The notes under the pieces are model-generated. The model ran no database searches, was not told where the DNA came from, and saw only the letters and a program-made list of their open reading frames with translations. Below, one piece after another: positions 991 through 61,707 of a DNA stretch of 64,000 nt. Every line of letters begins with the position of its first letter. Positions within the stretch are counted from its first letter, which is position 1. Source of the stretch: Patescibacteria group bacterium (GTDB lineage: Bacteria; Patescibacteriota; Patescibacteriia; CAIXNZ01); NCBI GenBank assembly GCA_028714455.1, contig JAQTMG010000002.1:38047-102046 (forward strand), given 5' to 3'. The translations under genes and the position numbers were made by a program.

Positions 991-1084
991 GTGATAAATT
1001 CCAAAACACAAATTCCAAATTCCAAAAAATTTGATTGCGAATTATTTGATATAATTATTATTTAATTTTTGCTATAATTAATAT

Positions 1085-7464: not shown

Positions 7465-7541
7465 TTAGTTTATTGGTTTAATGGTAAAATTCGGACCAAT
7501 TTCCTAATTAACAAATAAACCAGTAAACAATTCGTTAAATT

Positions 7542-9131
7542 ATGACTAAACTAAAAAATAAACCCGTAGCGCTCTTAATACTTGATGGTTTTGGCATTGC
7601 GCCGCCAGCTCCGGGCAACGCCATTAGCCAGGCCAAAAAACCAAATATTGATAAATACATAGCCACCTATCCTTCAATGGCGCTGGTTGCTTCTGGCGAT
7701 TCGGTCGGTCTTTCCTGGGGGGAGATGGGCACTTCAGAAATCGGTCATCAAAATATAGGTTCAGGCATGATTGTCTATCAGTGGTTGCCCAGAATCAATA
7801 AAGCGATTTCTGACGGCACGTTTTTAAAAAACGAAGCATTTTTAAAAGCCGCGGCGCACGTTAAGAAAAATAAATCAAAGCTGCACCTCTTCGGCTTGGT
7901 CTCATCGGGCGGAGTTCATTCGCACATTGATCATTTATATTCTTTACTGCAATTTGCCAGCCGGCAAAAAATAAATGAAGTTTACATTCACGTGATTCTC
8001 GACGGCCGTGATAGCATTTACAACACGGGCAAAGGTTTTGTTGAAGAACTGTTAAATAAAATTAAAGAATTAAGAGTTAACGCGAAAATCGCCGACATAT
8101 CAGGCCGTTTTTACGCCATGGACCGCGATAATCATTGGGAAAGAACCGAAAAAGCCTTTAACGCCATGGTTAAGGGGGAGAGCGATGAAAAATTTGAAGA
8201 TCCGATTAAAGCCGTAGAGAGTTCTTACAAAAAAAAGGTTTACGATGAAGAATTTGTGCCGGCGGTAATTACAAAAAAAGGCAAACCAGTCGGTTTGATT
8301 GAAGATAAAGACGCCGTGATTTTTTTCAATTTCCGCGCCGATCGAGCCAGACAGATTTCCGAGGCGTTTATACTGCCGGAATTTGATAAATTTCCTCGTC
8401 CTGATTTTTCCAAATTGTTTTTTGTGGGCATGACGCAATACGATAAAGATTTACCACTTGACGCCTTTGCTTTCGCGCCGATTGAAATAAAAAAACCTTT
8501 GGCTAAAATTTTGAGCGACGCGGGTCTGAAGCAGTTGCATATAGCTGAAACAGAAAAATACGCTCACGTGACCTATTTTTTCAATGGCGGCGTGGAAGAG
8601 CCATTTCCTGGCGAGGATCGCATTGTTATTCCTTCGCCGCGCGTGCCCTCTTTTGATCAAAAACCCGAGATGTCCGCTTATAAAGTTACGGACGAAATCG
8701 TGAAAGCTGTTTCAGAAAACAAATATGATTTTATCGTGGCCAATTTTGCCAATACCGATATTGTGGCCCACACCGGTAACCTGAAAGCGACAATTGAGGC
8801 CGCCGAAGTGGTTGATAAATGCGTGGGCAAAATAATAAATTTGATTTTAAGCAAAAACGGCGTTGTTTTTTTGACTGCCGATCACGGCAATGGCGAAGAA
8901 TTACAAAACATCAAAACAGGGGAAATGGATAAGGAACACAGTACTAATCCCGTGCCGTTTATAATCATTGGTCATCAGTGGGAAGGCAAAAACCTTGGCC
9001 TGCCAGACAGCGTAGGCGGCGATTTAAGCTTAGTTACGCCTTCCGGTGTCTTAGCCGATGTAGCGCCCACGATTTTGAAGGTAATGGGCTTTAAACCCTC
9101 GAGTGAAATGACAGGAACGCCATTGATTTAG
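7542..9131 (+). CDS. gpmI: 2,3-bisphosphoglycerate-independent phosphoglycerate mutase, divergent tandem paralog
   Basis: LLILDGFGIAP, GTSEIGHQNIGSG, LTADHGNGEEL; roughly 40% identical by eye to the upstream copy. Confidence 0.88.
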   Translation: MTKLKNKPVALLILDGFGIAPPAPGNAISQAKKPNIDKYIATYPSMALVASGDSVGLSWGEMGTSEIGHQNIGSGMIVYQWLPRINKAISDGTFLKNEAFLKAAAHVKKNKSKLHLFGLVSSGGVHSHIDHLYSLLQFASRQKINEVYIHVILDGRDSIYNTGKGFVEELLNKIKELRVNAKIADISGRFYAMDRDNHWERTEKAFNAMVKGESDEKFEDPIKAVESSYKKKVYDEEFVPAVITKKGKPVGLIEDKDAVIFFNFRADRARQISEAFILPEFDKFPRPDFSKLFFVGMTQYDKDLPLDAFAFAPIEIKKPLAKILSDAGLKQLHIAETEKYAHVTYFFNGGVEEPFPGEDRIVIPSPRVPSFDQKPEMSAYKVTDEIVKAVSENKYDFIVANFANTDIVAHTGNLKATIEAAEVVDKCVGKIINLILSKNGVVFLTADHGNGEELQNIKTGEMDKEHSTNPVPFIIIGHQWEGKNLGLPDSVGGDLSLVTPSGVLADVAPTILKVMGFKPSSEMTGTPLI

Positions 9132-9165
9132 AAATAGGAAATATGAAATACGAAATACGGAAAAG
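9131..9165. repeat. heptamer tandem repeat (GAAATAN)x5, left inverted repeat of the four-helix-bundle gene
   Basis: GAAATAG GAAATAT GAAATAC GAAATAC GGAAAAG; reverse-complement array at 9551-9578. Confidence 0.7.
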
Positions 9166-9167
9166 GT

Positions 9168-9539
9168 ATGAATAATTATATAAAATTCGAAGATTTGGAT
9201 GTTTATAAAATATCAAGAGAACTTTCGGGGGTTTCATGGGAAATTTTTCAAGCGTTAAATTCAGAGCAAAAATATATATTCGGCAAGCAATTTGTTACGG
9301 CAGTTGATTCGATAGGGGCAAACATTGCCGAAGGTTATGGTAGATATCATTATTTGGACAAAATAAGATTTTATTACAATGCCAGAGCATCTCTTTTTGA
9401 ATCTAAACATTGGGTAGATTTATTGCATGAAAGAAAAGTGATAGATGTTTCGAATCATAATTTACTTTTAGAAAAATTTAATTTACTGAATGCTAAATTG
9501 AATAATTTCATTAAAGCTACTTTGGAAAAATCCAAATAA
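9168..9539 (+). CDS. four-helix-bundle protein (23S rRNA intervening-sequence protein family)
   Basis: IGANIAEGYGRY signature; 123 aa; flanked by inverted heptamer arrays. Confidence 0.8.
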   Translation: MNNYIKFEDLDVYKISRELSGVSWEIFQALNSEQKYIFGKQFVTAVDSIGANIAEGYGRYHYLDKIRFYYNARASLFESKHWVDLLHERKVIDVSNHNLLLEKFNLLNAKLNNFIKATLEKSK

Positions 9540-9550: not shown

Positions 9551-9578
9551 CACTTATTTCTAATTTCGTATTTCATCG
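9551..9578. repeat. heptamer tandem repeat, reverse-complement partner (GATGAAA TACGAAA TTAGAAA TAAGTGA on the minus strand)
   Basis: Inverted relative to 9131-9165. Confidence 0.65.
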
Positions 9579-12729: not shown

Positions 12730-12764
12730 GAAATATGAAATATGAATTATGAAATATGGAATTG
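12730..12764. repeat. heptamer tandem repeat (GAAATAT)x5
   Basis: GAAATAT GAAATAT GAATTAT GAAATAT GGAATTG. Confidence 0.7.
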
Positions 12765-22819: not shown

Positions 22820-22977
22820 TATTTATAACCGCAGACAATAGGTTTTCGCAAGATGTAAATCCTATCGAGGTTGTAAAATCAATAATTGATTTTTTATCGT
22901 ATTGTCTGTGGGAAACCGCAGATTTTTTTGTTTTAGATATTGGAGATTGGTGACTGGAGATTAGCGAAAGGAAAAAT

Positions 22978-23011
22978 CCATTCCCTAATCTCTAATCCCT
23001 AATAAACTAAT
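22978..23011. repeat. heptamer tandem repeat (CTAATCN-like)
   Basis: CCATTCC CTAATCT CTAATCC CTAATAA ACTAAT. Confidence 0.55.
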
Positions 23012-23548: not shown

Positions 23549-23594
23549 CGGCTTTGGGCTTAGAGCCTTGAGCTCGGTGCCCTTAGCTCGTAGC
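23549..23594. repeat. heptamer (GCTC-type) tandem repeat between rplJ and rplL
   Basis: CGGCTTT GGGCTTA GAGCCTT GAGCTCG GTGCCCT TAGCTCG TAGC, period 7. Confidence 0.6.
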
Positions 23595-39149: not shown

Positions 39150-39189
39150 AATTTATAAACCGCTTGGCTTATGCTGGGCGGTTTTTTCT

Positions 39190-42645: not shown

Positions 42646-42792
42646 AAGATATGGATAACCACGAAATTTTATTCACGAAAAACACTAAATTTTCGTGAGT
42701 TTTTGTGTAATATTTTCGTGGTTCATCTTTCAGCTATTTTATCTTAACCATTTTAGCAAACTTTGACAAGTAATTAAATGTTTAGAAGTTGT

Positions 42793-48297: not shown

Positions 48298-48333
48298 AAA
48301 ACGGCGATCATCTGGTCGCCGTTTTTTCTTTTT
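48298..48333 (+). terminator. hairpin AAACGGCGATCATCTGGTCGCCGTTT + T-run
   Basis: Perfect 8-bp stem. Confidence 0.7.
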
Positions 48334-48334
48334 G

Positions 48335-48420
48335 CGCGCTCCGTCATTCCGAATGTGATGAGGAATCTATTACTCCAAAAAGTCATAGATCCTTCGCTTC
48401 GCTCTGGATGACGGAGCGCG
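48335..48420. repeat. palindromic repeat element family A, copy 3 (outer stem GCGCGCTCC/GGAGCGCG)
   Basis: Core GTCATTCCGAATGTGATGAGGAATCT...GATCCTTCGCTTCGCTCTGGATGAC. Confidence 0.8.
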
Positions 48421-48440
48421 TTTCTGTTAAAATAAAGTTC

Positions 48441-50519: not shown

Positions 50520-50557
50520 AAACCCGCCTTTGCAATTAAGCATTGGCGGGCATTTGC

Positions 50558-51247
50558 TTATTCAGGTTTTGGAATATGAACGGGGACTTCGGAGAGCATT
50601 TCGGAAAGCATCCAGCCGGCCACGGCTTCCTTATCTTCATGCGAAACACCCCATGTGCCGAGGAATCCATGAAAGCAAGCTCTTTGGCTGACCTGAACAT
50701 TTTCATCTGGGTTTTTGAATTTCCAATTACTGATATTGCCTCCGCAATAAAAGAGCTTCATGGCATATTCGGTCCAGGGGTTCCTGTGCCTAAACTCGTC
50801 AGGACAGGCTCTGGTCAGAGCAACTTCGTTGGTCAGGCCGCCGAGCGGCTGTGGCACACCTTCAAAAAGCATTTTTTTGTTTTGTTCCACGATTTCTTTC
50901 TCTCGTAGCTCCGCTCTCTTCAGTGCCTCGCCATCGGCCAGGCCGTTTTCTCTTGCATAGTTGATGAAATCAAGGCCGGCGACTTCGAGCAGCTTGTCGA
51001 TTTTGACCAGAAAGATTCGTCTTTTGCGGTTATCTCTCATGGACGTCACGGCATTAAGCTCGTCTTTGTTCACTGCAATAAAAGCAATGGGCGAAACTTG
51101 ATTTGTAACCAGCACGACAGGGAAGAATCCTTGGGGAACGCTTTCCCAGTCCAGCTTGAGGTCAAAAGGTGAGGCAAGCGCTTCTTTTTGGAGCCACTGT
51201 TCAACTGTTTGGTCTGATGGTCCGATCACAAAGTCCTTCATTTTCAA
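50558..51247 (-). CDS. hypothetical protein (229 aa), high GC
   Basis: SD AAAAAGGAGGAGATTGAAAATG; TTGACA promoter on the minus strand. Confidence 0.45.
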   Translation of the reverse strand: MKMKDFVIGPSDQTVEQWLQKEALASPFDLKLDWESVPQGFFPVVLVTNQVSPIAFIAVNKDELNAVTSMRDNRKRRIFLVKIDKLLEVAGLDFINYARENGLADGEALKRAELREKEIVEQNKKMLFEGVPQPLGGLTNEVALTRACPDEFRHRNPWTEYAMKLFYCGGNISNWKFKNPDENVQVSQRACFHGFLGTWGVSHEDKEAVAGWMLSEMLSEVPVHIPKPE

Positions 51248-51304
51248 TCTCCTCCTTTTTTATTTTGATTTTAAATACTAACATAATATAATTGCAATGT
51301 CAAT

Positions 51305-51772
51305 ATGGCTCTAGAAAAATATAAGCAAAAAAGAAAATTCAAATCCACGCCAGAACCAAAGGGCAAAGCACTCAAAAAGCTTCAGCAACGTTTTGTGATT
51401 CATGAACATCATGCCAGCCATTTGCATTATGATTTTCGCCTGGAAATGGAATCAAAAATTGACAGCGGCGAGATTGTCTTGAAATCCTGGGCCGTGCCCA
51501 AGAATTTGCCGGAAAAGGTAGGGGAGAGGCGCTTGGCTGTTGAAGTTGAAGATCATCCAGTTGATTACATAAATTTTTATGGAGTAATACCTGAAGGTAA
51601 TTATGGCGCTGGCACTGTTAAAATTTGGGACAATGGTAAATATGATTTGATTCGGCGGACAGAAAAAGAAATTGAATTTATTTTGCATGGCAAAAAACTT
51701 AATGGGCCTTATGTTTTGGTCAAAACGCATTTTAGCAAAAATTCCTGGTTGATAATCAAATTGAAAGAATAA
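51305..51772 (+). CDS. stand-alone LigD-type 3'-phosphoesterase domain protein
   Basis: FVIHEHHASHLHYDFRLE...SWAVPKNLP...VEDHPVDY...GVIPEGNYGAGTVKIWDNGKY matches the LigD-PE His/Asp/Tyr core. Confidence 0.8.
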   Translation: MALEKYKQKRKFKSTPEPKGKALKKLQQRFVIHEHHASHLHYDFRLEMESKIDSGEIVLKSWAVPKNLPEKVGERRLAVEVEDHPVDYINFYGVIPEGNYGAGTVKIWDNGKYDLIRRTEKEIEFILHGKKLNGPYVLVKTHFSKNSWLIIKLKE

Positions 51773-51934
51773 AAAAATTGTCACCCTGAGCTTAGTCGAA
51801 GGGCGACAATTTTTATTGCCAGATTGATGCTTTAGTTCGGCTACGCTCACTATAAACTTTTAGGCTTGTCCTGAACATGCCGAGGACTTCAGCATGACAA
51901 TCTGGGCAGAAATTAGTATAATATAGATATAAAT

Positions 51935-51970
51935 TCATAATTTCATATTTCTTATTTCATAATTTATATT
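51935..51970. repeat. heptamer tandem repeat (TTTCATA-type)
   Basis: TTCATAA TTTCATA TTTCTTA TTTCATA ATTTATA. Confidence 0.55.
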
Positions 51971-51971
51971 T

Positions 51972-52472
51972 ATGCTCAATATTGAAATCCAACACGGCAA
52001 TTTAATTAAAGTTCAAGCCGATGCCATTGTCAATCCAACCAATTCTTTCGGCTGGATGGGCGGAGGTTCGGCCAGTGCTATTAAGAAAGCAGAGGGAAAT
52101 AAAATTGAGGACGAGATTAAGGCCCAAGCGCCGCTGGAAATCGGCACGGCCATTGCCACGCCAGCCGGCGAATTGCCTTACAAAGCGATTATTCACTCGC
52201 CAGTTGTTGTTTCGCCGACTGATACGGCTAAGCCTTATGATGTGGCCATGGCGGTTTCTGGCGCTTTACTTTTAGCCGATGACAAAGGTTTTAAAACCAT
52301 TGCCATGCCGGGCATGGGCACCGGTGTGGGCAATTTTCCGATTAAAGACGCGGCCAAAGTCATGATCGCTGAAATAAAAAAGTTTAAGCCGATTAATTTA
52401 GAAAAAATAATTTTGATTGATGAAAATGACGAATTGGCCAAGGCCTGGAAAGATGAACTGGAGAAAAAATAA
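51972..52472 (+). CDS. macro-domain protein (ADP-ribose binding / hydrolase)
   Basis: ADAIVNPTNSFGWMGGGSASAIKKAEG. Confidence 0.8.
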   Translation: MLNIEIQHGNLIKVQADAIVNPTNSFGWMGGGSASAIKKAEGNKIEDEIKAQAPLEIGTAIATPAGELPYKAIIHSPVVVSPTDTAKPYDVAMAVSGALLLADDKGFKTIAMPGMGTGVGNFPIKDAAKVMIAEIKKFKPINLEKIILIDENDELAKAWKDELEKK

Positions 52473-52487
52473 AATTTTACAAATAAA

Positions 52488-52517
52488 AAGCGGGTGCCTA
52501 GCGTCCGCTTTTTTATT
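52488..52517. terminator. bidirectional hairpin AGCGGGTGCCTAGCGTCCGCT flanked by A/T runs
   Basis: Between convergent genes. Confidence 0.55.
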
Positions 52518-53049
52518 ATTTATATGATAATTTTTTTCCTCTAATTACCGCGCACTCGCTATATTTATGTAAGCTTTTACGCTTTTGATTTTGAATATGA
52601 ATAACTTTATAGCCAAGTGATTTTAATTTATCAGAAAGCAGCATACGATGGCAATTCCAGTATAATAATTCGGCGCACATAATGGCCGCGTTGCCTCCTT
52701 TAACTTCTTTTAGCAATTTTTTGAAGCCGTTTTGAAATCCCTTGGTTTGCATGTAAATTGCGTAATTGCGGAACCAGCTGGAGCGCCAGCAAGCGCCTTG
52801 TTTATTTTTTACTTTGGCTAATTCTTTTTTGGCGCGATAGCCACCCAATTCTTGGCCGAGCCAGAGATATTTTATTTCATTTTTTTTCAGAGTTCGTTTG
52901 AGAATGTACTGGTTGAATTGGGGGTTATAAGCTGAACCAGGGAATCGGCGCACGTCAATCAATTCTGAAATTTTATATGCCTTAAGAATGTCAATGAATT
53001 CTTTCATCGGATGGGTTGAGTGACCGATTGTGAAAACCGTTTTTGTCAT
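52516..53049 (-). CDS. DUF488-family protein
   Basis: VFTIGHSTHPMKEFIDILK; 177 aa; TTGACA promoter on the minus strand (-35 at 53070-53075; -10 TAAGTT would sit at a short 14-bp spacing, 17-18 bp to GTTATG/TTATGA). Confidence 0.7.
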   Translation of the reverse strand: MTKTVFTIGHSTHPMKEFIDILKAYKISELIDVRRFPGSAYNPQFNQYILKRTLKKNEIKYLWLGQELGGYRAKKELAKVKNKQGACWRSSWFRNYAIYMQTKGFQNGFKKLLKEVKGGNAAIMCAELLYWNCHRMLLSDKLKSLGYKVIHIQNQKRKSLHKYSECAVIRGKKLSYK

Positions 53050-53071
53050 AACTTAATTTTAACATAATTTG

Positions 53072-53103
53072 TCAAAGAAAAAAGTCCCGCGGAGCGGGAC
53101 TTT
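53072..53103 (-). terminator. hairpin AGTCCCGCTCCGCGGGACT + T-run on the minus strand
   Basis: 7-bp stem. Confidence 0.65.
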
Positions 53104-53111
53104 GAATTTGG

Positions 53112-53567
53112 CTACATCGCTCGATAAGCCTTAGCGAACTTGCGAAGCCTTTTCAGTCTTTTCTCGATGTTTCTGGCATCTGCCCTGTTCATTTTTAGAG
53201 CGGCTTTGAGTGCCTGTATTTCACCGTACAGAGAATCCGCCTTTTCTTTCAGCGCTATTGCCCAGGCTTCTTTTTCAGTCAGCAGGTCTTTTGCCTGGCA
53301 GTAGTACTTGATATTCTGCCAGTATTCTTTGATTACCTTTTTGTGGTAATCGTATTTCACCATCCTTATTTCCAATTCATAATACCAAACCTTGTTTTCC
53401 CACATCTTGCCGATGATCTTTCCCATCTTGAAGGCGTCGCCCAATTGTTTAAGCGATAGCTCTTGGCGTATTAATCCGATAGATGGGTCGTCGTAGTCAT
53501 AGCCTTTTTGAAAAATCGCCCTGTCTCCGATTTTGAATTGCCGCCTCTTAGCCTTCTTACTCGCCAA
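53112..53567 (-). CDS. hypothetical protein (151 aa, TTG start)
   Basis: SD GGAGGTGTAAATTG; minus-strand promoter TTGACA-N16-TATACT at 53594-53621. Confidence 0.4.
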   Translation of the reverse strand: MASKKAKRRQFKIGDRAIFQKGYDYDDPSIGLIRQELSLKQLGDAFKMGKIIGKMWENKVWYYELEIRMVKYDYHKKVIKEYWQNIKYYCQAKDLLTEKEAWAIALKEKADSLYGEIQALKAALKMNRADARNIEKRLKRLRKFAKAYRAM

Positions 53568-53619
53568 TTTACACCTCCTTTAATTTTTTCTTTAGTATAT
53601 CATTTGAAAAATTATTGTC

Positions 53620-53652
53620 AAAAGAAAAAAAGCGTCCCGATGAGCGGGGCGC
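53620..53652 (-). terminator. hairpin GCGCCCCGCTCATCGGGACGCT + T-run on the minus strand
   Basis: Downstream of the 53662 gene. Confidence 0.5.
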
Positions 53653-53661
53653 TTTTTGATT

Positions 53662-54000
53662 TTACGCTTCATGCCTTTTTAATTCCTTGAGCCTGCCTTT
53701 AGCCAGAATTTTCAGTTCATCGGTCGGGGCATGAATGATCCAGTATTGGAGACGAATCGGGTCGTCTGCGGCGGAAATTGCCTTTTGCGCGGCTTGCTCT
53801 TGCAATTTTTGGTCGCACGAGATCATGCCCACCAAAATAGCTTCTTCATAAAACCGAGCAAGCGCCAGAGCTTTTTTAAGCGCTTCCTCTCTCTGCGGAC
53901 CAGTAACACCCTCGGTCAGTTCGATACACTTGGTAAAATTATCAGCCTGTTCGAGTATGTTATGAAAAGCGGCTATCTCCGGACTTATCTCCGATCCCAT
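53662..54000 (-). CDS. hypothetical protein (113 aa)
   Basis: SD AAAGGAGGGCAAAATG; minus-strand conserved promoter TTGACAAAA-N-TAAGGT at ~54027-54061. Confidence 0.4.
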   Translation of the reverse strand: MGSEISPEIAAFHNILEQADNFTKCIELTEGVTGPQREEALKKALALARFYEEAILVGMISCDQKLQEQAAQKAISAADDPIRLQYWIIHAPTDELKILAKGRLKELKRHEA

Positions 54001-54110
54001 TTTGCCCTCCTTTGTTTTAAAATCTATATCACACCTTAGCAAAAATAGAGATTTTGTCAAGTGAGTTTTTGCAAAAGAAAAACCCCCGCGAGATCGCGAG
54101 GGTTGGGGGA

Positions 54111-54686
54111 TTAAAGTTTGGGAAGCTGTTTTGGCACTGGTTCGCCAATTTGGGCCCAGATCCGTTCCTCTGCTTCTAGCGCGAGAGGCGTTAAACTCGC
54201 CGGAGCATGTTTCACTGCCCCGCGAATCTGCCTTGCGTTTCCCGCTGCCGCTGCCAGCTCGATGAACTTTTTCCAGTAGATTTCGGGAGTGGACAGCATG
54301 TAAAGAGAGTCGTCAAGCTTTTCCATGCTCGGCGCTCTCTTGACGCACTCATCCGCCGCCCGGCGCCTTTTCTCCGCCGCTTTAAAATAATCGTGTTCGG
54401 GGACGTCCTGTCCCGGCAGCATTTGAACCAGCCAATGCCAGAATTCAAATCCAAGATCCGGTTCTTCGTAGTTTTCGAGCAGGGAAAGACATTTTTGCCT
54501 GGCCATAAACTGCATTTTGTCGGTTACGTAATGGCGCTTTGTTTGCTCGTACGCCCAGCGCGCTTCGAGCGGAGTGGTCGCGGCATTGATGCACGCCCAC
54601 AGAGCATTGATATAGGTCGCCTCGAGCTGCAATTTTCTTTCCTCCAGGTTAAGAATCTCTTGCTTCAGCTCATCGAAATTCGACAT
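54111..54686 (-). CDS. hypothetical protein (191 aa), high GC
   Basis: SD AAAAGGAGGATAAAAATG; minus-strand conserved promoter TTGACAAAAC-N-TAAGTT at 54725-54753. Confidence 0.45.
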   Translation of the reverse strand: MSNFDELKQEILNLEERKLQLEATYINALWACINAATTPLEARWAYEQTKRHYVTDKMQFMARQKCLSLLENYEEPDLGFEFWHWLVQMLPGQDVPEHDYFKAAEKRRRAADECVKRAPSMEKLDDSLYMLSTPEIYWKKFIELAAAAGNARQIRGAVKHAPASLTPLALEAEERIWAQIGEPVPKQLPKL

Positions 54687-54749
54687 TTTTATCCTCCTTT
54701 TATTTTAGGAACAATTGATTTAATAACTTATCAGAAAATTTTCGTTTTG

Positions 54750-55550
54750 TCAACCGCGCGCCATTTTATAGACGTTGGCCAGCAGCATGGCGATGGTCAT
54801 GGGTCCGACGCCGCCGGGGACAGGGGAACGATAGGCGACAACCTTATCAACTTCCGGATCAACGTCACCCACGGTTTTACCAGCGATTTTATTAATGCCA
54901 ACATCGATGATTGTCGAATTTTTCTTGACCATGTCGGTTTTGATAGATTTTGGTTTGCCTACGGCGACGATGAGAATATCGGCACTTGAGCTCTGAGCTT
55001 TGAGCTCTGAGCTCGAAGCTTTGGGCGAAAGGTAAGAAACATTACATTCGCGCATTAACGGTTTAAACGGTTCAGCGAATTTTTCAGAGTTTGATAAAAT
55101 CACAACTTTTTTATTTTTCAAATTTTCACCAGTACTTTTAATCAGTTCAATAATGCCCGAAACCGTCGGTGAAATAATTTTTGACTGCGGTTGAAAGCCA
55201 TCCACGTCTTTTTCCGGCGAAATCCTGGCTATTATTTTATCAGTGTCAAAGTTTTTGGGCAGAGGCAGCTGAATCAAGATGCCGGTAATCTGCTCATCCT
55301 TATTTAAAAAATCAATGACTTCAAATATTTTTTCTTCGCCGCAATCCTCTGACAAAAAATAACTGGAAAATTCAATGCCAACCTCAAGGCAGGCTTTGGC
55401 TTTTAATTTTATATAAAGTTCAGATGAGGGATCATTGCCAATTAAAATAGAAGCCAGAGCTGGTTTTTTGTCCATTTGAATTATTTTGCCGCGAAGTTCT
55501 AATTTAATTTTTTCGGCCAGAATTTTGCCGTCAATGAGTTTGGCTGACAT
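54750..55550 (-). CDS. folD: bifunctional methylenetetrahydrofolate dehydrogenase / methenyl-THF cyclohydrolase
   Basis: AKLIDGKILAEKIK...; GVGPMTIAML; start at the internal MSAKL; contains an in-frame heptamer-repeat insertion (54988-55026) encoding ...KASSSELKAQSSSAD... Confidence 0.88.
   Translation of the reverse strand: MSAKLIDGKILAEKIKLELRGKIIQMDKKPALASILIGNDPSSELYIKLKAKACLEVGIEFSSYFLSEDCGEEKIFEVIDFLNKDEQITGILIQLPLPKNFDTDKIIARISPEKDVDGFQPQSKIISPTVSGIIELIKSTGENLKNKKVVILSNSEKFAEPFKPLMRECNVSYLSPKASSSELKAQSSSADILIVAVGKPKSIKTDMVKKNSTIIDVGINKIAGKTVGDVDPEVDKVVAYRSPVPGGVGPMTIAMLLANVYKMARG
54988..55026. repeat. heptamer GAGCTCN tandem repeat inside the folD coding sequence
   Basis: GAGCTCT GAGCTTT GAGCTCT GAGCTCG AAGCTTT GGGC. 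Confidence 0.65.
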
Positions 55551-55551
55551 A

Positions 55552-55607
55552 GGGCTTTTGGCTTTGGGCTCTGGGCAAAAAGCTCTATGCTCTATGCTCG
55601 TGGCCCA
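55552..55607. repeat. heptamer GGGCTNT tandem repeat array (8 units) in the glyA-folD spacer
   Basis: GGGCTTT TGGCTTT GGGCTCT GGGCAAA AAGCTCT ATGCTCT ATGCTCG TGGCCCA. Confidence 0.65.
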
Positions 55608-55612
55608 TGGCA

Positions 55613-56857
55613 TTAATATTTTAAATCCTTATAGATAGGGAATTGGTGCGTGAGTTGTGCCACCTGTTTTTTGGCTTTTTCCTGAATTATCGCATCTTCA
55701 TGATTTTTTAGAAGTTCAGAGATTAAATTTCCGATTATCTTCATCTCTTTTTCTTTCATGCCTCGCGTGGTCAGAGCTGGCGTGCCCAGGCGCAGACCAG
55801 AGGGGTCGGCGGCTTTTCTCGCGTCAAAAGGAATCAGATTTTTATTAGTGTAAATGCCGACTCGAGCCAGAATTTCCTCGGCCTGCTGTCCGCCAAGACG
55901 CAGATTTGTCAGTTTTAGCAAAATCAGATGCGTGTCTGTGCCGCCCGAAACAAGTTCAAAGCCGTTATTAATCAGAGTGGCGGCCAAAACACTGGCATTT
56001 TTTATGACCTGCTGTTGATATTTTTTAAAGGTCGGTTTCATGGCCTCCGCAAAACAAACGGCTTTAGCCGCGATAATATTTTCCAGCGGACCGCCCTGAA
56101 TACCAGGAAAAACGGCCTTGTCTATTTTTTCAGCCAAATATTTTTTGCACAAGATAAATCCGCCGCGCGGACCGGCCAGCGTTTTGTGCGTGGTGCTGGT
56201 AATAACATCGGCGTAGGGAATAGGATCGGGATGAAGTTTGGCCACGACCAGTCCGGCAAAATGCGCCATGTCAACCATTAATTTGGCGTTGACCGCGTCA
56301 GCTATTTTTTTAAATTTTTCAAAATCAATCTGGCGCGCGTAAGCGGAACCGCCGGCGATGATCAGCTTTGGCGCCTCGCGCTGGGCGATTTCCAAAACAT
56401 TACCATAGTTTATTTCTTCGGTGTTTTTATCAACGCCATAAAAAGCAACTTTGTAGATTTTGCCTGAAAAATTTAAATGCGAGCCGTGGGAAAGATGGCC
56501 GCCTTGCGCCAGATTCATGGCCAAAATCTTGTCGCCTGGATTTAAGAGCGCCAGATAAACCGCCATATTGGCCTGACTGCCAGAATGCGGCTGAACATTG
56601 ACATGCTCGGCGCCAAAAAGTTTTTTGGCTCGTTCGATAGCCAAACTCTCGGCTTCATCAATGAATTGATTGCCGCTGTAATATCTTTTGCCGATTTGTC
56701 CCTCTGAATATTTATTCATCAAAACACTGCCGCTCGCTTCTAAAACCGCTTGCGAGGCGTAGTTTTCAGAGGCGATCATTTCCAGCCCGTCTTTTTGGCG
56801 AGCCAGCTCTTTTTGAACCGCGGCGTAAACCTGTTTGTCTGTTTTTAGATATTTCAT
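55613..56857 (-). CDS. glyA: serine hydroxymethyltransferase
   Basis: [14 protein letters not shown] (PLP lysine region); 414 aa. Confidence 0.95.
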
Positions 56858-56879
56858 AATTTTTAAAATTATATCCTAA

Positions 56880-57245
56880 AATTAGGCAAAATAAAAGGGG
56901 CATCACGATGATGCCCCGGGAGACGAGGAACCCTATATTGATCAACCAGCTTAGCTGGCTTATTTCGGGGAGGGTGTGGTCGCACCCTCCTCACCAAAAA
57001 GAAGAACGAGTACAGGGAGGTGAACGAACCTATTTTAACCAGCTTTGGCTGGCTTGTTTTCGGGAGGGTGGTTTGGTTCACCCTCCCGCCTTTGAAGAGA
57101 GACTGAAAAAGACCGAACTTATTCGAACCTGCATTCGCAGGATTGCTTTCGGCCCGAACTGGCGTTCGGGCCAGATACCCGAGAGGCAAGAGCTAACCAA
57201 GTCACCACCCAGGACCGGATAGCTTTATTATAGCAAAAGTTTATC
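56880..57245 (-). ncRNA. candidate structured RNA / tandem ~80-nt repeat element upstream of glyA (class unknown), ending in the hairpin GGGGCATCATCGTGATGCCCC + T-run on the minus strand
   Basis: GC-rich and ORF-free; two tandem units each with GAGGGTG..CACCCTC and AACCAGCT..AGCTGGTT hairpins; terminator-like hairpin at 56885-56915. Confidence 0.35.
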
Positions 57246-57250
57246 CACAG

Positions 57251-58825
57251 CTACAAGCTTTTCATCATGTATGTATTTTGTCGGCGATAACCAAGCTTCT
57301 TGTAATATTGTCGCACACCAATGCCAGAAATGACAGCGATTTTTTTAAAGCCTGCTTTTTTGGCGATTTTTTCCGCAGCAGCGATCAATTGGCGTCCTAA
57401 ACCAGCGTGTTGAACCGCGTGCCCTTTGCTTTTTAGCGGAATCAGTTCGCCATAGGTGTGAACTTCACGAATTAAGGCAACGTCTTTTAATTCGGGCAAC
57501 GCGTCTGATAATTTTTCATCAACATTTTTTGGCAATCTTAAACGCAGGAAAGCGAATAATGTTTTTTTATCTTTTGATTCGCAGCTCAAAAAATATTCCA
57601 GACCCTCGGAAGCTTTGTACTTCTTAATTCTATATTCTATATTCTTTATTCTAAATTCTTTATTTCTCGCTTCGCGGCAACGAATGCATTGGCAGAATTC
57701 GCCTGTTTTTTGAAAGCGTTCGTTAATGAGCTGGCGCAGATTGGAAATTTTATTGCCAGCCACAATGCTCTCGGAAGGAATGTCGCGGATAATTCTGCTT
57801 AGGCGCACATAAGGCGGAATTATTTTTTTTATCTTAACTAAAAGATTTAAAAGTTGTTTGTCAGAATAAGGCTTGAATTTGCCGGCTTTGTACCATTTAT
57901 AAATCTTGGCAGTATCAGTCACGACGCAAGGATAAATTTTTAACATGTCTGGCTGATAATTTTGGTCACGAAATAATTGATTGAACATTTTGAAATCTTT
58001 GGCAGGAGTTGAAGTCGGCAAATTTGGCATCATGTGGTAAGAAATTTTAAAACCCGCATCCTTGAGTAATTTTGTCGCCTCAATTATTTCTTTGGTTAAA
58101 TGACCGCGTTTTGTTAATTTTAATATTTTATCGTCAATGGTTTGCACACCCAATTCCACTCTGGTGGCGCCCAGTTCGCGCATTCTTTTGATTTCGGGAA
58201 TGGAAATATAATCAGGCCGAGTTTCCAGAGTTATGCCAATAACTCGAAACTTCGCCGTTTCATTCAATTTTTGGGCTGAAGCTAGGTTTTTGGCAGTTCT
58301 CTGGTTAAAAGCCTCAAAACATCTCTTAATAAACCAAGTCTGATATTTATGCGGCAAATAAGTCCAGGTGCCGCCCATGATAATTAATTCGCATTTGTCA
58401 GTATCATGCCCGGTCATGGCTAAAGCTCTTAAACGCATTTGCACCTGCTTGAAAGGATCGAATCGGCATAAAATTGCCCTCATAACTGCTGGTTCATTAG
58501 ATAAATAAGATTTAGGCATTTTCTTTTCATTGGGGCAAAAAACACATTCGCCCGGGCACTTGTAGGGTTTGGTTAAAATGGCCACGACTGCCACGCCAGA
58601 AAGTGTGCGTATTTCGCGCTTTTTAAGCAGCTTTTTCAGGGCTAAATGCCCATTTCCAGATTTGACTAATTTGTGATAAGCTGAAAGGAGTTTGATGCGC
58701 TTTGGCGAGGGGATTTTAAAGCCACTTGCTAGTTTTTTAACTAAATAATTTAACTCCCGCTGGGTGGTGGGTCTGGATTTGATTAACTGCTGAACAATAA
58801 TTTTTTCTATATTGGATTGTTTCAT
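57251..58825 (-). CDS. elp3: Elp3-family radical SAM + GNAT acetyltransferase (tRNA wobble-uridine modification homolog)
   Basis: CPGECVFC radical SAM motif; C-terminal GNAT HAGLGRQLIAAAEKIAKKAGFKKIAVISGIGVRQYY; in-frame heptamer repeat at 57622-57668. Confidence 0.85.
   Translation of the reverse strand: MKQSNIEKIIVQQLIKSRPTTQRELNYLVKKLASGFKIPSPKRIKLLSAYHKLVKSGNGHLALKKLLKKREIRTLSGVAVVAILTKPYKCPGECVFCPNEKKMPKSYLSNEPAVMRAILCRFDPFKQVQMRLRALAMTGHDTDKCELIIMGGTWTYLPHKYQTWFIKRCFEAFNQRTAKNLASAQKLNETAKFRVIGITLETRPDYISIPEIKRMRELGATRVELGVQTIDDKILKLTKRGHLTKEIIEATKLLKDAGFKISYHMMPNLPTSTPAKDFKMFNQLFRDQNYQPDMLKIYPCVVTDTAKIYKWYKAGKFKPYSDKQLLNLLVKIKKIIPPYVRLSRIIRDIPSESIVAGNKISNLRQLINERFQKTGEFCQCIRCREARNKEFRIKNIEYRIKKYKASEGLEYFLSCESKDKKTLFAFLRLRLPKNVDEKLSDALPELKDVALIREVHTYGELIPLKSKGHAVQHAGLGRQLIAAAEKIAKKAGFKKIAVISGIGVRQYYKKLGYRRQNTYMMKSL
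57622..57668. repeat. heptamer TATTCTN tandem repeat inside the elp3 coding sequence
   Basis: AATTCTA TATTCTA TATTCTT TATTCTA AATTCTT TATTTCT; encodes NKEFRIKNIEYRIKKY. Confidence 0.6.
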
Positions 58826-58889
58826 AATTAAGATGAGCTATTTTAGAAGAGCTAAAAGAGCTAAATGTCGAGAAGAGCTATAGGTTTAA

Positions 58890-58965
58890 AGGTTAATAGG
58901 CAAGAATAAACCTTTTAGCCTATCACCATATAGTTCCTATAATCCTATAGCTCCTGTAGCTCCTA
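58890..58965. repeat. 9-mer TATAGYTCC tandem repeat array
   Basis: TATAGTTCC TATAATCC TATAGCTCC TGTAGCTCC TATAAACGC; same vocabulary as 5625-5865. Confidence 0.6.
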
Positions 58966-58972
58966 TAAACGC

Positions 58973-59674
58973 ATGAAGGAAGAAATCGCGTTAAAAATTT
59001 TAGCCAAGAACAAGGAGCTTTATAATGATATCGCTTCTGATTTTTCGCGCACGCGCGGCGCGGTCTGGCCTGAATTTGAGTATTTTAAAGGATATATCGC
59101 TAACGGTCAAGATATTCTGGATCTGGGTTGCGGCAATGGCCGGCTCTTGGAACTGCTTAAAGAATATCAGATTAATTATTTGGGTATTGATTACAGTCAG
59201 AAACTAATCGGTCAGGCCCAGCGTCTCTGGCCCGATAGCAAATTTTTAGTGGCGGATATTTTGAATCTGCCGCCGCTTAAGAAAAAGTTTGATTTGATTT
59301 TTTGCGTGGCGGTCTTGCACCACATTCCCTCAAAAAAATTTCGTTTGCAGGTTTTGAAAGAGATGAAAAATCTTTTGAAACCGGGCGGGAAATTGCTCAT
59401 GATCAATTGGAATTTATGGCAGACGCGCTACCTGAAATATATCATCAAATACACGCTTTTAAAAATGACTGACCCGCTCAATGAGGCAAACGGAATTAAA
59501 CACATGAATTTGGATTTGGGCGATGTTTTCATTCCCTGGCAGAAAAAACATTTGCGCTATGTCCATGCTTTTACCGAAATGGAAGTTGAATCGTTATTGA
59601 AAAAATCTGGGTTTGAAATTATAAAAAATGTTTCCAATAACAGAAACATAATTACGGTGGCGAAAGTAAAATAG
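58973..59674 (+). CDS. class I SAM-dependent methyltransferase
   Basis: ILDLGCGNGRLLE motif I. Confidence 0.7.
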   Translation: MKEEIALKILAKNKELYNDIASDFSRTRGAVWPEFEYFKGYIANGQDILDLGCGNGRLLELLKEYQINYLGIDYSQKLIGQAQRLWPDSKFLVADILNLPPLKKKFDLIFCVAVLHHIPSKKFRLQVLKEMKNLLKPGGKLLMINWNLWQTRYLKYIIKYTLLKMTDPLNEANGIKHMNLDLGDVFIPWQKKHLRYVHAFTEMEVESLLKKSGFEIIKNVSNNRNIITVAKVK

Positions 59675-59680
59675 AAAACA

Positions 59681-60267: not shown

Positions 60268-61707
60268 ATGGAACTCAATAAAATCAAAAAAGTCCACATC
60301 ATCGGCATAGGCGGCATTGGTATTTCAGCTGTGGCCAAATTGCTTTTAAGTTTGGGTAAAAAAGTCAGCGGTTCTGATTTGGTTTCTTCTGACATTACTA
60401 GCACCCTAAAGAATTTTGGCGCTAATATCGTTATTGGGCCGCATAAAGCCATAAATGTGCCCAAAGATGTTGATTTGGTGTTATTTAGTGATGCTGTTCC
60501 ACTAGAAAACCCGGAACGAGCTCGGGGCTCGGGGCTCAAAGCTCAAAGCCTAAGTTATTTTCAATTTTTAGGCGAATTTAGTAAAGATAAATACACCATT
60601 GCCATTTCCGGTTGTCACGGCAAAACCACAACCACAGCTTTAGTTGGTTTGCTTTTGGAAGCAGGCGGTTTGGATCCGACCGTGATTGTGGGCAGTAAAG
60701 TGAAAAATTGGGATGGCAATTTGCGCCTTGGCGCCAGTAAATATTTTGTGGTTGAGGCCGATGAATACAAGGCCCATATGCTGCAACTAAATCCCAAAGC
60801 GATTATTTTAAACAACATTGAATTTGACCATCCGGATTTTTATAAGGACTTAAATCAATATATTGACGCTTTTAACCATTTCGTTTATAAACTGCCCGAG
60901 GATGGAATTTTTATTTACAACGCTGATGACCATAATATCGTTGACCAGATTGAAAAACCCGCCTGCGAGGTCCTGACTTTTGGTCTAGAAAATCCCTCGG
61001 TTGATTTAACCGTGAAAAGTATTAAGGTGGACCATGGCCGCCAGATTTTTAAACCGCTCTATAAAAATCAGGAACTGCGTGATTATAATTTGCAAGTGCC
61101 TGGCCGATTCAATATTTTGAACGCGCTTGGCGCAACCCTGTTAGCCCTGGAACTTGGCGTTAATCCTGACGTGATTAAAGATACCTTATCCAGATACACT
61201 GGCGCCTGGCGCAGATTTGAAGTAGTTGGCACAATTGATAATCTGACTGATGATAAAAACGGCGCCATTGTTATTTCTGATTATGCTCATCACCCGACTG
61301 AAATTGCCAAGACCATCAAAGCCACCAAAGAATTTTATCCAGACAGAAGACTGCTGGTTGCTTTCCAACCCCACCAGATTCAGCGAACAAAAGCTTTGTT
61401 CAATGAGTTTATTAAAACCTTTGCCCAAAGTCCGGCTGACATTGTTATTCTTTCGGAGATCTATGATGTGAGGGGTAGGGAAGAAAAAGATGTGACCAAA
61501 AGAGTCAGTTCGCAAGATCTTTTGGAAAAAATCGTTTTGGCTGAATCAAAAAAGCTCGTTGAAGGCGTCAAGGTTTCAGAATACTATTATGCCGCTGATT
61601 TAGTTGAAACCAAGGCCAAGATTTTGGAACTCGTGCAATCCAATGATGTGGTTTTGGTTTTGGGCGCTGGTGACATTGATAAAGTTGCCAGGGAACTTAT
61701 AAAATAA
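60268..61707 (+). CDS. murC: UDP-N-acetylmuramate--L-alanine ligase
   Basis: VHIIGIGGIGISAVA, AISGCHGKTTTT; in-frame heptamer repeat at 60517-60550. Confidence 0.9.
   Translation: MELNKIKKVHIIGIGGIGISAVAKLLLSLGKKVSGSDLVSSDITSTLKNFGANIVIGPHKAINVPKDVDLVLFSDAVPLENPERARGSGLKAQSLSYFQFLGEFSKDKYTIAISGCHGKTTTTALVGLLLEAGGLDPTVIVGSKVKNWDGNLRLGASKYFVVEADEYKAHMLQLNPKAIILNNIEFDHPDFYKDLNQYIDAFNHFVYKLPEDGIFIYNADDHNIVDQIEKPACEVLTFGLENPSVDLTVKSIKVDHGRQIFKPLYKNQELRDYNLQVPGRFNILNALGATLLALELGVNPDVIKDTLSRYTGAWRRFEVVGTIDNLTDDKNGAIVISDYAHHPTEIAKTIKATKEFYPDRRLLVAFQPHQIQRTKALFNEFIKTFAQSPADIVILSEIYDVRGREEKDVTKRVSSQDLLEKIVLAESKKLVEGVKVSEYYYAADLVETKAKILELVQSNDVVLVLGAGDIDKVARELIK
60517..60550. repeat. heptamer GGGCTCN tandem repeat inside the murC coding sequence
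   Basis: GAGCTCG GGGCTCG GGGCTCA AAGCTCA AAGCCTA; encodes ...RARGSGLKAQSLS... Confidence 0.65.

Follow-up and report, generated by a model that had tools for sequence, protein, structure and literature searches.

How does a bacterium come to carry tandem arrays with a period of seven nucleotides, both between its genes and, in frame, within three genes for housekeeping enzymes (folD, murC and elp3)? The arrays occur in a contig of a Patescibacteria group bacterium, of which we analyzed a stretch of 64,000 nucleotides, referred to as the window in the following. To our knowledge, non-triplet tandem repeats are thought to be kept out of essential genes, or to serve there only as on/off switches. 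Here, however, three housekeeping enzymes carry in-frame heptamer arrays whose codon positions are unchanged throughout a clade, and whose sequence turns over in concert.

Arrays were detected with Tandem Repeats Finder (TRF) and our own lag scans, with 40 dinucleotide-preserving shuffles as a control (Table 1). The lag scan finds nine strong period-7 arrays in the window versus 0.1 expected from the shuffles, and between zero and three arrays for each other period, the multiples 14 and 21 being set apart. Likewise, 14 lag-7 windows reach at least 15 of 21 matches, compared with 0–8 for the other periods between 4 and 15, but 11 at the multiple 14; for 54987–55014, TRF also gives a period of 14, with 100% match. 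Two arrays score weaker in the lag scan yet are real (15/21 at 9551–9578 and 14/21 at 23549–23594). The signal is not confined to this contig: close relatives have 27 period-7 arrays in 170 kb (at most nine for any other period) and distant relatives 40 in 268 kb (at most 13), the multiple 14 aside in both cases, so that the excess extends over ~440 kb from related Patescibacteria in total. Since the window shows no lag-7 surplus in its overall autocorrelation once the arrays are masked, the signal is limited to discrete arrays, and a diffuse mutational bias was rejected. The arrays thus have two properties of heptanucleotide long simple sequence repeats, namely head-to-tail units (within the 5–11 nt that define the class) in runs longer than chance and a period of 7 that is commoner than its neighbors.

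It might be argued that chance or base composition produced such runs in an AT-rich genome, or that they are assembly artefacts, as several units are A/T-rich and the source is a metagenome-assembled genome. However, apart from their excess over the shuffles, GC-rich units exist although the genome has 40% GC, and the same arrays recur in independent assemblies and at orthologous codons in more than ten other genomes. We give this reading next to no credence.

An earlier note on this DNA had listed such arrays and proposed to check them with TRF or autocorrelation, and these methods bear out a heptamer periodicity at essentially all of its coordinates. Two points need correction. The array at 55552–55607 is not a part of folD, whose true start is the ATG at 55550 (MSAKLIDGK, matching residue 1 of PDB FolD), but constitutes the glyA–folD spacer; and the elp3 unit WAGAATW does not belong to the GAAATAN family, its best match to it being 4/7. 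The note's idea of a single repeat-generating process is favored, as the arrays exceed chance and the period of 7 holds whatever the unit sequence. This independence of period from sequence points to one process, and a slipped-strand type would agree with what is known of heptanucleotide simple sequence repeats.

Table 1. Period-7 arrays and associated features of the window, with the corresponding TRF calls of period 7.
Feature	Position	Strand	Context	Detection	TRF period-7 calls
AATTCCA-type array	997..1031		Spacer between HypA-like ORF and pgk (genes by Pfam)	TRF (4.4 copies), lag scan	996-1026
ORF-less hairpin of inverted period-8 arrays, GTTTATTG / CAATAAAC	7465..7541	+	gpmI1–gpmI2 spacer		
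Cassette 5' arm, (GAAATAN)x4	9131..9165	+	From gpmI stop to 2 nt before cassette ATG	TRF, lag scan	9131-9163
PF05635 gene (23S rRNA intervening-sequence protein, four-helix bundle)	9168..9539	+		Pfam, E=2e-24	
Cassette 3' arm, (NTATTTC)x3	9551..9578	+	Ends 2 nt before fpg ATG	Lag scan	
Solo array, (GAAATAT)x5	12730..12764		7 nt upstream of minus-strand DUF212 gene	TRF (score 52)	12730-12762
Hairpin 5' arm, (ATTGGAG)x3.4	22939..22962	+	Between L10 leader and rplJ	TRF	
Hairpin 3' arm, (CTAATCY)x3-4	22978..23011	+	Ends 11 nt before rplJ ATG	TRF	22982-23003
RGCYYNN array, ~6.5 units, self-complementary	23549..23594		Fills spacer after rplJ	Lag scan	
(ATTTCAT)x5	51935..51970		Ends 1 nt before ATG of Macro-domain gene	TRF	51934-51971
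folD array, (RAGCTCA)x5	54988..55026	-	Codons ~175-188, encodes SPKASSSELKAQSSS	TRF	54987-55014
glyA–folD spacer array, sub-arrays GAGCATA and RAGCCNA	55552..55607	-	Fills glyA stop to folD ATG	TRF	55552-55576; 55582-55599
elp3 array, (WAGAATW)x6	57622..57668	-	Codons ~386-402, radical-SAM/acetyltransferase linker	TRF (score 55-67)	57627-57664
murC array, (RRGCTCR)x5	60517..60550	+	Codons ~84-95, encodes RGSGLKAQS	TRF	60520-60537; 60534-60549

The arrays within folD, murC and elp3 had been taken for in-frame insertions that could make the three enzymes variable in length, and alignment with solved structures and with 9–13 relatives per gene contradicts the first part of this claim and, between species, the second. 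The array segment of FolD aligns gaplessly with 'CHRFTTDLKSHTTK' of PDB entry 3L07, that of MurC with 'VASALERRIPV' of a PDB MurC chain (29zm/8dof), and the Elp3 linker is six residues shorter than in 6IAD. Neither folD nor murC carries an array in three relatives (L007, L009 and L030), whose proteins are of equal or nearly equal length there. As such repeat-free orthologs carry segments of the same length, the genic arrays are not insertions, and the ortholog comparison proposed by the earlier note speaks against it. The arrays retain the same codons, unit number and register in relatives down to 60–70% identity (the tblastn identity for FolD is 73%), and within their proteins they fall among the lowest 0.4% (FolD), 1% (Elp3) and 8% (MurC) of windows by conservation. 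They encode a normal, poorly conserved segment at fixed length.

Length variation within the arrays is indeed nearly absent. There are no indels in murC (12 relatives) or among the aligned relatives in elp3, and the only exceptions in folD are a two-residue deletion in L019 and an 11-residue insertion in L020, which is an in-frame GC-rich hairpin unrelated to the array; a frame-changing difference in unit number was found in none of the 9–13 relatives per gene. Contingency loci, at which slipped-strand mispairing varies or switches FolD, MurC and Elp3, would lead one to expect otherwise. Heptamer tracts are in principle substrates for slippage, and in the spacers the number of units does vary from species to species, but the constancy of unit number and frame in the genic arrays contradicts this reading at the between-species level; moreover, the enzymes are single-copy housekeeping proteins in which a 7-nt change is a frameshift, and an independently assembled contig (L042), which differs from the window only in its last 70 nt, is identical to it over 49368–59889, a region spanning the folD and elp3 arrays. 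We consider contingency loci highly improbable. The two available contigs from the same population, L042 and L044, are identical, and look-ups of exact proteins retrieved no contigs other than ones that equal the window or L043. As classifications, a phase-variable locus was rejected on the constant unit number and frame of the aligned relatives, and an in-frame insert resembling the Rickettsia palindromic elements because the genic arrays add no residues compared with repeat-free orthologs.

At this constant length, the unit sequence changes in parallel. In folD, where eight relatives have the array at the same codons, five units have shifted from CTCAAAT to CTCAAAG: position 7 is G in the first 5/6 units of the window and L001, whereas the other relatives, L004 excepted, have T there in the majority of units. 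The murC unit is AAGCTCA in the window versus AAGTTGA in relatives, and the elp3 array is built, depending on the relative, from WAGAATW, WRAGATT or AACAATT, in a single register throughout (L001–L005 have this register with different units). In the window/L001 lineage, the arrays of murC and folD set out from distinct ancestral units and have both arrived at RAGCTCA, which encodes LKAQS in both genes; as DNA, the two arrays are 78% complementary in a repeat-pair scan. Across genes, the mean number of shared 6-mers is 2.57 within genomes versus 1.35 between clades, for sequences that are not phylogenetically independent, and the sharing of units between genes of a genome is suggestive only. 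The genic arrays evolve in concert while their length stays constant, each in the least conserved part of its enzyme. They offer a natural system in which to measure how repeats are converted without a change in length and how much protein loops tolerate.

The intergenic arrays, by contrast, vary among relatives, both in copy number and in whether they are present at all. They fill the spacers from stop codon to ATG, which measure 0–5 nt in operons where no array is found, and may be present or absent at the same spacer between relatives that are 80–90% identical. Upstream of the DUF212 gene, for example, there are ~5–5.5 units in the window, four in L043 and none in L045. At the glyA–folD site, L001 has no spacer (TAACATG), while L002 and L004 have a different family; the inverted pair of L002 (ATGGCWW/ATATGCC) includes, in its unit ATATGCC, the ancestral folD start context ATGCCAG, so a repeat unit can be seeded from local sequence. 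Furthermore, L001 has a CACGAAA element where the window has a TAGCTCC element. The arrays in spacers are thus both dispensable and dynamic. As a practical aside, the folD ORF was called 21 codons too long; gene callers run ORFs on through the arrays.

Units recur between distant loci of one genome. Two genome-specific families, GAAATAN and RGCTCNN, have four members each within the 64 kb, and ten pairs of units match at 6/7 or more positions versus 2.7 expected (maximum 8 in 300 trials); L023 even has four multi-member families in 19 kb. The arrays share this property, few heptamers at many loci of a genome, with repeats of the STRR and TAACTGA type. The consistent orientation to the downstream gene seen for TAACTGA is not found, as GAAATAN runs sense to transcription at 9131 and antisense at 9551, 12730 and 51935, where ATTTCAT represents the GAAATAT family as its reverse complement. 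No further members emerged, beyond the known arrays, from searches with 14-mer dimers at up to three mismatches.

Intergenic arrays are often inverted pairs able to form hairpins. Those between the L10 leader and rplJ are an inverted pair, of which the 5' arm was missing from the earlier list, and 22930–23025 folds with −31 kcal/mol (z −6.1). The leader itself (Rfam match at 22811–22939) is the only known RNA family in the window, which has no rRNA or tRNA genes. The array after rplJ has the dinucleotide GC at the same position in 7/7 units and folds on both strands (−22.6 and −19.7 kcal/mol). In general, GC-type and paired arrays fold well (z −2.3 to −6.1), and AT-type arrays have a folding energy of ~0.

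Alternatively, the arrays could be cis-elements under selection. Within polycistronic RNA, those that are paired or palindromic would then make stems that serve as processing sites of the RNase III type or as stability sites, like those of 23S rRNA intervening sequences, and solo A/U-rich arrays would act as structure-free, Shine-Dalgarno-independent leaders or as binding sites for a repeat-reading protein. The exact placement of a hairpin between the L10 leader and rplJ would fit, as would the unit families common to several loci, the folding contrast between array types and the persistence of complementary arms despite differing units. So would the arrays that end 1–11 nt before seven start codons lacking a Shine-Dalgarno motif, a geometry known from TAACTGA repeats (PMC4679880), but the contrast with other genes (0/7 versus 16/67 with the motif) is not significant and gives no sign that the arrays replace it. 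One family occurs in both orientations to transcription, close relatives have or lack arrays at the same spacer, and that the arrays of murC and folD are palindromic is not a conserved feature among relatives. Selection at the RNA level was rejected on the symmetry of folding energies and G-U counts between sense and antisense in 11 hairpins and 7 cassettes; because the hairpins fold equally well in both senses, there is no specific pointer to RNA. Overall, we regard cis-elements as possible but rather unlikely.

Between gpmI and fpg, an inverted pair encloses a PF05635 gene. Its arms are 80% complementary and form a duplex of −20 kcal/mol (z −3.0). The gene is absent in L043, L045 and the P0003 contig and present at the same site in L046, where the 3' arm has four units instead of three; it is the ORF of an inserted cassette, and we regard such small genes as selfish. 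Such an arrangement is found for 9/9 PF05635 genes with both flanks in view (seven from CPR, plus Omnitrophica and Deltaproteobacteria), at six genomic sites. In the CPR examples, the arm duplexes have energies between −15 and −28 kcal/mol; those of L051 and L052 have −19 and −79.5 kcal/mol, respectively. The arms can have periods other than 7 (8 in L050, 10 in L052), and they retain complementarity though their units differ (L050 versus the others). Complementary arms also enclose an inserted PDDEXK_3 gene in one case, and ORF-less hairpins share unit families with cassette arms; that of the hairpin at 7465–7541 also forms the arms round the PF05635 gene in L050. This bracketing of PF05635 genes and one PDDEXK_3 gene by tandem arms offers a lead on the nature and movement of intervening-sequence cassettes.

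All arrays might even be copies or remnants of mobile hairpin elements, that is, of intervening-sequence-like cassettes with PF05635 or PDDEXK_3 genes and their MITE-like ORF-less derivatives, whose insertion sites would lie between genes but also, in frame, within them, as for Rickettsia palindromic elements. Besides the bracketed genes, the missing cassette in three relatives and the ORF-less hairpins, the exchanged element in L001 and the GC-rich hairpins inserted in frame within the folD array (L020) and at the site of the elp3 array (L009) are consistent with this. However, the genic arrays, orthologous throughout the clade, do not lengthen their genes, and the L002 unit derives from a local start-codon context. 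The cassette junctions show no target-site duplication, the window's 75 ORFs include neither a transposase nor a reverse transcriptase, and mobility leaves the internal period of 7 nt unaccounted for, which makes this origin distinctly unlikely. A diversity-generating retroelement (DGR) was rejected as well for the window, which is part of a 189-kb contig, as there is neither a reverse transcriptase among these ORFs nor a template/variable repeat pair in a long-repeat scan. The four-helix-bundle proteins of PF05635 are, we assume, the family of the DGR accessory protein Avd. It is conceivable, if very unlikely, that they form one system with the flanking tandem-repeat arms, which would copy unit sequence from array to array in a templated, possibly RNA-mediated manner. 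If true, it would cover the unit families, the length-neutral rewriting of folD, murC and elp3 and the convergence of murC and folD on RAGCTCA, and would be the first function for the widespread, uncharacterized PF05635 family and for 23S rRNA intervening sequences.

We prefer to interpret the arrays as heptanucleotide simple sequence repeats that are made and homogenized by 7-nt misalignment or gene conversion and tolerated only in unconstrained sequence, an explanation to which we give about even chances. The arrays are a DNA-level trait common to the whole clade of Falkowbacteria-like Patescibacteria to which the organism belongs, and would arise and remain homogeneous through misalignment of strands by one unit in replication or repair, as well as through short-patch gene conversion between neighboring units and occasionally between arrays. 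They would survive only at sites free to vary. In operon spacers, they would expand across the entire gap from stop to ATG, with units gained, lost and swapped between relatives, often as inverted pairs that are potential hairpins and arms of inserted PF05635 or PDDEXK_3 ORFs and of ORF-less derivatives; in part, the arrays would have spread with hairpin cassettes. In FolD, MurC and Elp3, they would lie in the most variable surface segment, with frame and length fixed by purifying selection, so that only length-neutral conversion events survive; codons and unit number would consequently be long-lasting, while the unit sequence turns over in parallel. Misalignment and conversion are what we infer as the mechanism, and no function seems needed to account for the arrays.

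Several observations do not sit easily with this preferred explanation. Local slippage alone does not explain the unit families common to distant loci or the convergence of murC and folD on RAGCTCA, and complementarity that is held in the arms while their units change looks like constraint. Clade-wide persistence would be unexpected if the arrays were purely neutral, because a slippage-prone non-triplet array in an essential gene is a mutational burden. Nor does the explanation account for the preference for a period of 7 over 6 or 8.

How do the arrays compare with known repeats? REP and REPIN sequences are short, intergenic, hairpin-forming repeats in genome-specific families, sometimes arranged as inverted doublets, and Rickettsia palindromic elements can sit in frame inside genes, where they add residues. 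Unlike the arrays, both lack an internal tandem periodicity, and the window has no RAYT-like transposase gene of the REP/REPIN kind. The phase-variable contingency loci of Haemophilus and Neisseria resemble the arrays as short tandem repeats in or just upstream of genes with the same mispairing chemistry, but they have 1–5-nt units of strain-variable number in surface or restriction genes, whereas the genic arrays have a fixed unit number and lie in housekeeping enzymes. Closer to the arrays are the cyanobacterial heptanucleotide repeats called STRR, which Mazel is said to have described in 1990. With these and the GGGAATC/GGGGAYT repeats of Xanthomonas and Nostoc (PMC4692102), the arrays share that a few genome-specific heptamer families occupy many intergenic loci, and a recurrence between the same gene pairs of related species with variable length and sequence. 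The units of the arrays described here, however, are mostly A/T-rich or contain a GAGCTC palindrome and none forms G-quadruplexes, and inverted pairs and an association with PF05635 cassettes are found only here, relative to those repeats as described.

The TAACTGA direct repeats of marine Beggiatoaceae, cyanobacteria and Bacteroidetes (MacGregor, 2015, PMC4679880) likewise end one to a few nucleotides before start codons. They comprise 2–6 heptamer copies in spacers where Shine-Dalgarno sequences are rare, a protein reading the repeat has been proposed, and the few copies inside ORFs lie in peripheral protein segments (PMC4679880). They involve one heptamer in one preferred orientation, as opposed to several families in both orientations here, and unlike them, our genic arrays lie in the interior of the proteins, are orthologous and do not vary in length. 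The cassettes, in turn, resemble 23S rRNA intervening sequences, stem-loops excised by RNase III that contain a PF05635 ORF (bioRxiv 10.1101/2024.02.27.582315): in both, the ORF sits in the loop of a long stem, here between stem-capable complementary flanks, and the distribution is sporadic and insertion-like. In contrast, our cassettes lie in mRNA spacers (the one in the window is found between gpmI and fpg instead of in an rRNA helix), and their predicted stems consist of tandem 7-, 8- or 10-nt units. In a literature search of incomplete coverage, we found no description of heptamer repeats in Patescibacteria, CPR or Parcubacteria, or of tandem-repeat arms round PF05635 genes.

The closest match is offered by the heptanucleotide repeats, the most abundant class of long simple sequence repeats in many prokaryotes (Mrazek, 2007, as cited in PMC4679880 and PMC4692102), for which polymerase slippage has been proposed (Mrazek, Guo and Shah, 2007, as cited there). 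As far as that survey is rendered in the citing papers, its repeats are, like ours, 7-nt tandems beyond chance, with an over-represented period of 7 and mostly in non-coding sequence; the units of its coding repeats mainly measure a multiple of three, and Patescibacteria are not covered. Here, by contrast, non-triplet arrays lie in frame at orthologous codons of three housekeeping genes. The arrays are a variant of a known repeat class that remains without explanation. Why bacteria have 7-nt repeats in excess has called for an explanation since 2007, and the ultra-small genomes of Patescibacteria, with their near-zero spacers, show the phenomenon unusually cleanly.

The heptamer arrays (runs of tandem 7-nt units) reported in the earlier note are real and non-random. 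Tandem Repeats Finder places period-7 arrays at nearly all coordinates given there, and a lag-match scan finds nine in the window against 0.1 expected from dinucleotide shuffles, with zero to three arrays at other periods, the multiples 14 and 21 excepted; a window-count test agrees that period 7 is dominant. As no lag-7 excess is found in the rest of the window once the arrays are masked, they are discrete elements and not a diffuse bias. Coding sequence makes up about 90% of the window, most operon spacers measuring only 0-60 nt, and all relatives of its Elp3, MurC, FolD and GpmI are metagenome-assembled Patescibacteria, the nearest carrying the label Candidatus Falkowbacteria (Elp3 identity 89% and 82%). 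Close relatives (170 kb) hold 27 period-7 arrays versus at most nine at any other period except 14, and distant Patescibacteria (268 kb) hold 40 versus at most 13. Abundance differs by lineage: one relative's contig, L023, carries 15 over 19 kb, so that almost every spacer has one, and three others (L025, L028, L030) carry none.

Three arrays lie within genes, where they had been taken for in-frame insertions that could render the enzymes length-variable. Translated, the array inside folD reads SPKASSSELKAQSSS and pairs with 'CHRFTTDLKSHTTK' of the FolD structure 3L07 without a single gap; the murC array encodes RARGSGLKAQS, gapless against 'VASALERRIPV' of a PDB MurC chain (29zm/8dof). The elp3 array falls in the linker that follows the CIRCRE motif; compared with its counterpart in the Elp3 structure 6IAD, this linker is six residues shorter. 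Because these segments are, in addition, equal or nearly equal in length in repeat-free orthologs (L007, L009, L030), insertion is ruled out on the earlier note's own criterion. Between species, phase variation is refuted as well, since in relatives down to 60-70% identity the unit number is constant and frame-changing indels at these arrays are absent. The folD ORF as called starts 21 codons too early; the genuine start codon is the ATG at 55550 (MSAKLIDGK), so that 55552-55607 is the glyA-folD spacer.

In every relative to 60-70% identity, the genic arrays occupy identical codons in identical register, and unit sequence differs though position and unit number are fixed. The folD unit is CTCAAAT or CTCCAGT in six relatives (L002, L003, L015, L016, L019, L020) and CTCAAAG or CTCAGAG in the window and the related contig L001, with a T-to-G change at one unit position in five units. 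Relatives have AAGTTGA or AAAGTAN as the murC unit, against AAGCTCA in the window and L001; each unit thus differs by two changes, of which one is the synonymous pair TTG to CTC. The elp3 unit is WAGAATW, WRAGATT or AACAATT, depending on the relative. The genic arrays evolve in concert at unchanged length: independent events cannot account for the same substitution arising in parallel in five units along a single branch. Within each protein, the segment encoded by the array is where variability is highest (lowest 0.4% for FolD, 1% for Elp3, 8% for MurC), yet it is nearly gap-free. Exactly at the array site, and in frame, folD of L020 (within 14119-14946) carries a 33-nt GC-rich palindrome adding 11 residues (TYLSAKARRAK), and elp3 of L009 (within 789-2477) one of ~66 nt; hairpin elements may insert preferentially at such sites. 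In an Omnitrophica MAG (L051), (GCGATAC) and (AGACCAT) arrays lie in frame in an NAD-dependent epimerase gene and in manC (2204-2235, 4204-4236), and in-frame heptamer arrays are therefore not restricted to Patescibacteria.

Within one genome, the units group into families, in the window GAAATAN (arrays starting at 9131, 9551, 12730 and 51935) and RGCTCNN (23549, 54988, 55552 and 60517). Ten unit pairs in the window match at six or more of seven positions versus 2.7 expected. The arrays of murC and folD in the window and L001 have both reached RAGCTCA from different ancestral units, and LKAQS is now encoded by each; a general-purpose repeat search lists the two as an inverted repeat of 37 nt (78%). 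Similar sharing links elp3 and murC in L019 and elp3 and folD in L002, and in L023 the unit AATTACT is common to elp3 and an ORF matching folD. The arrays are not independent of each other; statistically, unit sharing between different genes is only suggestive. The earlier suggestion of a single repeat-generating mechanism is supported, the period being 7 whatever the unit sequence.

Intergenic arrays span whole spacers, from the stop codon to 1-11 nt short of the next ATG, and they are dispensable. Between glyA and folD, the window carries an RGCYY array and L001 has none (TAACATG); L002 has an inverted ATGGCWW/ATATGCC pair there, and L003 an unrelated element. Upstream of a DUF212 gene, a GAAATAT array runs to 5.5 units in the window and four in L043, and L045 lacks it. 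The L002 unit ATATGCC includes the ancestral folD start context, so units can be seeded locally. AT-type arrays have no structure at all; GC-type units contain an AGCT or GAGCTC palindrome and are self-folding. At rplJ, a heptamer-array hairpin in place of a U-rich terminator follows the Rfam L10_leader match (22811-22939; 52.3 bits, over the gathering threshold). Just upstream of folD, the distant relative L007 has an 89-nt array (14461-14549) of ACCCTAA, ACCCCAT and ACCCTAT units, resembling the plant-type telomere repeat.

The arrays at 9131-9165 and 9551-9578 flank a PF05635 gene (23S rRNA intervening-sequence protein, four-helix bundle) at the gpmI-fpg junction; three relatives lack this gene there, and L046 has it. 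Eight further PF05635 genes have both flanks in view (L043, 3508-3876; L046-L050; L051; and L052, a Deltaproteobacteria MAG). All nine, at six genomic sites, lie between inverted tandem-repeat arms of period 7, 8 or 10, no period being scored for the AT-rich L051 pair; in all eight further cases one arm fills the stretch between the preceding stop codon and the gene's ATG, and the other that between the gene's stop codon and the following ATG. The units of the arms are family-specific (GAAATAN, GTAATAN, GAAATTN, and GGTTTATT of period 8), and L052 has a 170-220-nt pair of period 10 (duplex energy -79.5 kcal/mol). In L046-L048, the two flanks are the only period-7 arrays scoring at least 11 within 6.4 kb; in L049 the 5' flank passes the score threshold, and the 3' flank, though recognizable in the sequence, falls short of it. 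A PDDEXK_3 gene has complementary flanking spacers (duplex -21.8 kcal/mol, z -3.5; motifs CACTAAT / CACGAAT), and in L043 pgk and the next ORF abut without it.

Repeats, hairpins and duplicated or inserted genes (window coordinates unless a contig is named)
Feature	Coordinates	Characteristics
Array hairpin	22939-22962 / 22978-23011	-31 kcal/mol, z -6.1; exactly between L10 leader and rplJ
ORF-less hairpins, same unit families as PF05635 arms, other spacers	7465-7541; L043 9916-9997; L045 1046-1140	
PDDEXK_3 (PF13366) nuclease-family gene	2320-2694 (region 2279-2746)	inserted exactly between pgk stop and next ORF
MITE-like palindromic element, ~100 nt, 3 copies	5077-5176, 24029-24138, 48324-48429	..GTCATTCCGAATGTRATGAGGAATC .. 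GATCCTTCGCTNCGCTCTGRATGAC..
35-nt palindrome, 4 copies	12803-12840, 32104-32138, 32151-32185, 59961-60002	(C/T)GTAGAGACGCG......CGCGTCTCTAC
Related spacers with inverted period-8/9 arrays	5633-5860, 58826-58972	TATAGGAGC / GCTCCTATA; 68 nt at 72% identity
Direct repeat, 82 nt, 91% identity	37786-37867, 39185-39266	GC-rich hairpin, then TTGACA
Tandem paralogous gpmI genes (cofactor-independent phosphoglycerate mutase), 2	5893-7464, 7542-9131	
23-nt unit, tandem duplicate	1040-1084	just upstream of pgk; extended -10-like box (TGATATAAT)

Several other repeats accompany the arrays. A relative of the MITE-like element fills the L003 glyA-folD spacer. One copy of the 35-nt palindrome lies within ORF 59681-60247, and ORF 32118-32747 overlaps two others at its start. 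Contig L042, which comes from an independent assembly and differs from the window only in its last 70 nt (59890-59954), terminates in this palindrome, which may mark a strain-variable insertion point. One of the period-8/9 spacers is the divergent elp3 / methyltransferase promoter region, where L001 has an unrelated CACGAAA inverted-array element like that at 42646-42730 in the window. The 82-nt direct repeat, upstream of two genes including rplU (L21), looks like a duplicated terminator-promoter module. The tandem gpmI arrangement is kept in L043, L045 and L046.

The most economical reading is that the arrays are DNA-level simple-sequence repeats, which fits four observations: the period is independent of sequence, spacer arrays are dispensable, folding shows no strand asymmetry (sense versus antisense, hairpins and cassettes) and heptanucleotide repeats are over-represented in prokaryotes (Mrazek 2007, as cited in PMC4679880 and PMC4692102). 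Misalignment in a 7-nt register and short-patch conversion would generate and homogenize them; selection would let arrays survive only in spacers, whose length is free to vary, and in protein loops that are unconstrained, where nothing but length-neutral events would persist. The unit families, the convergence between loci and the kept complementarity of arms are not fully explained by this process. They leave room for a stem or processing role under selection, for spreading together with hairpin cassettes and, least likely, for templated copying with an Avd-like PF05635 protein (Avd being the DGR accessory protein). Genes for reverse transcriptase, transposase or RNase III are absent from the window.

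We could not find a description in the literature of in-frame arrays in housekeeping genes that are orthologous, locked in length and evolving in concert, nor of tandem-repeat arms around PF05635 cassettes. Compared with the heptanucleotide repeats STRR, TAACTGA and GGGAATC known from other bacteria, the arrays described here are a variant in a new phylum.
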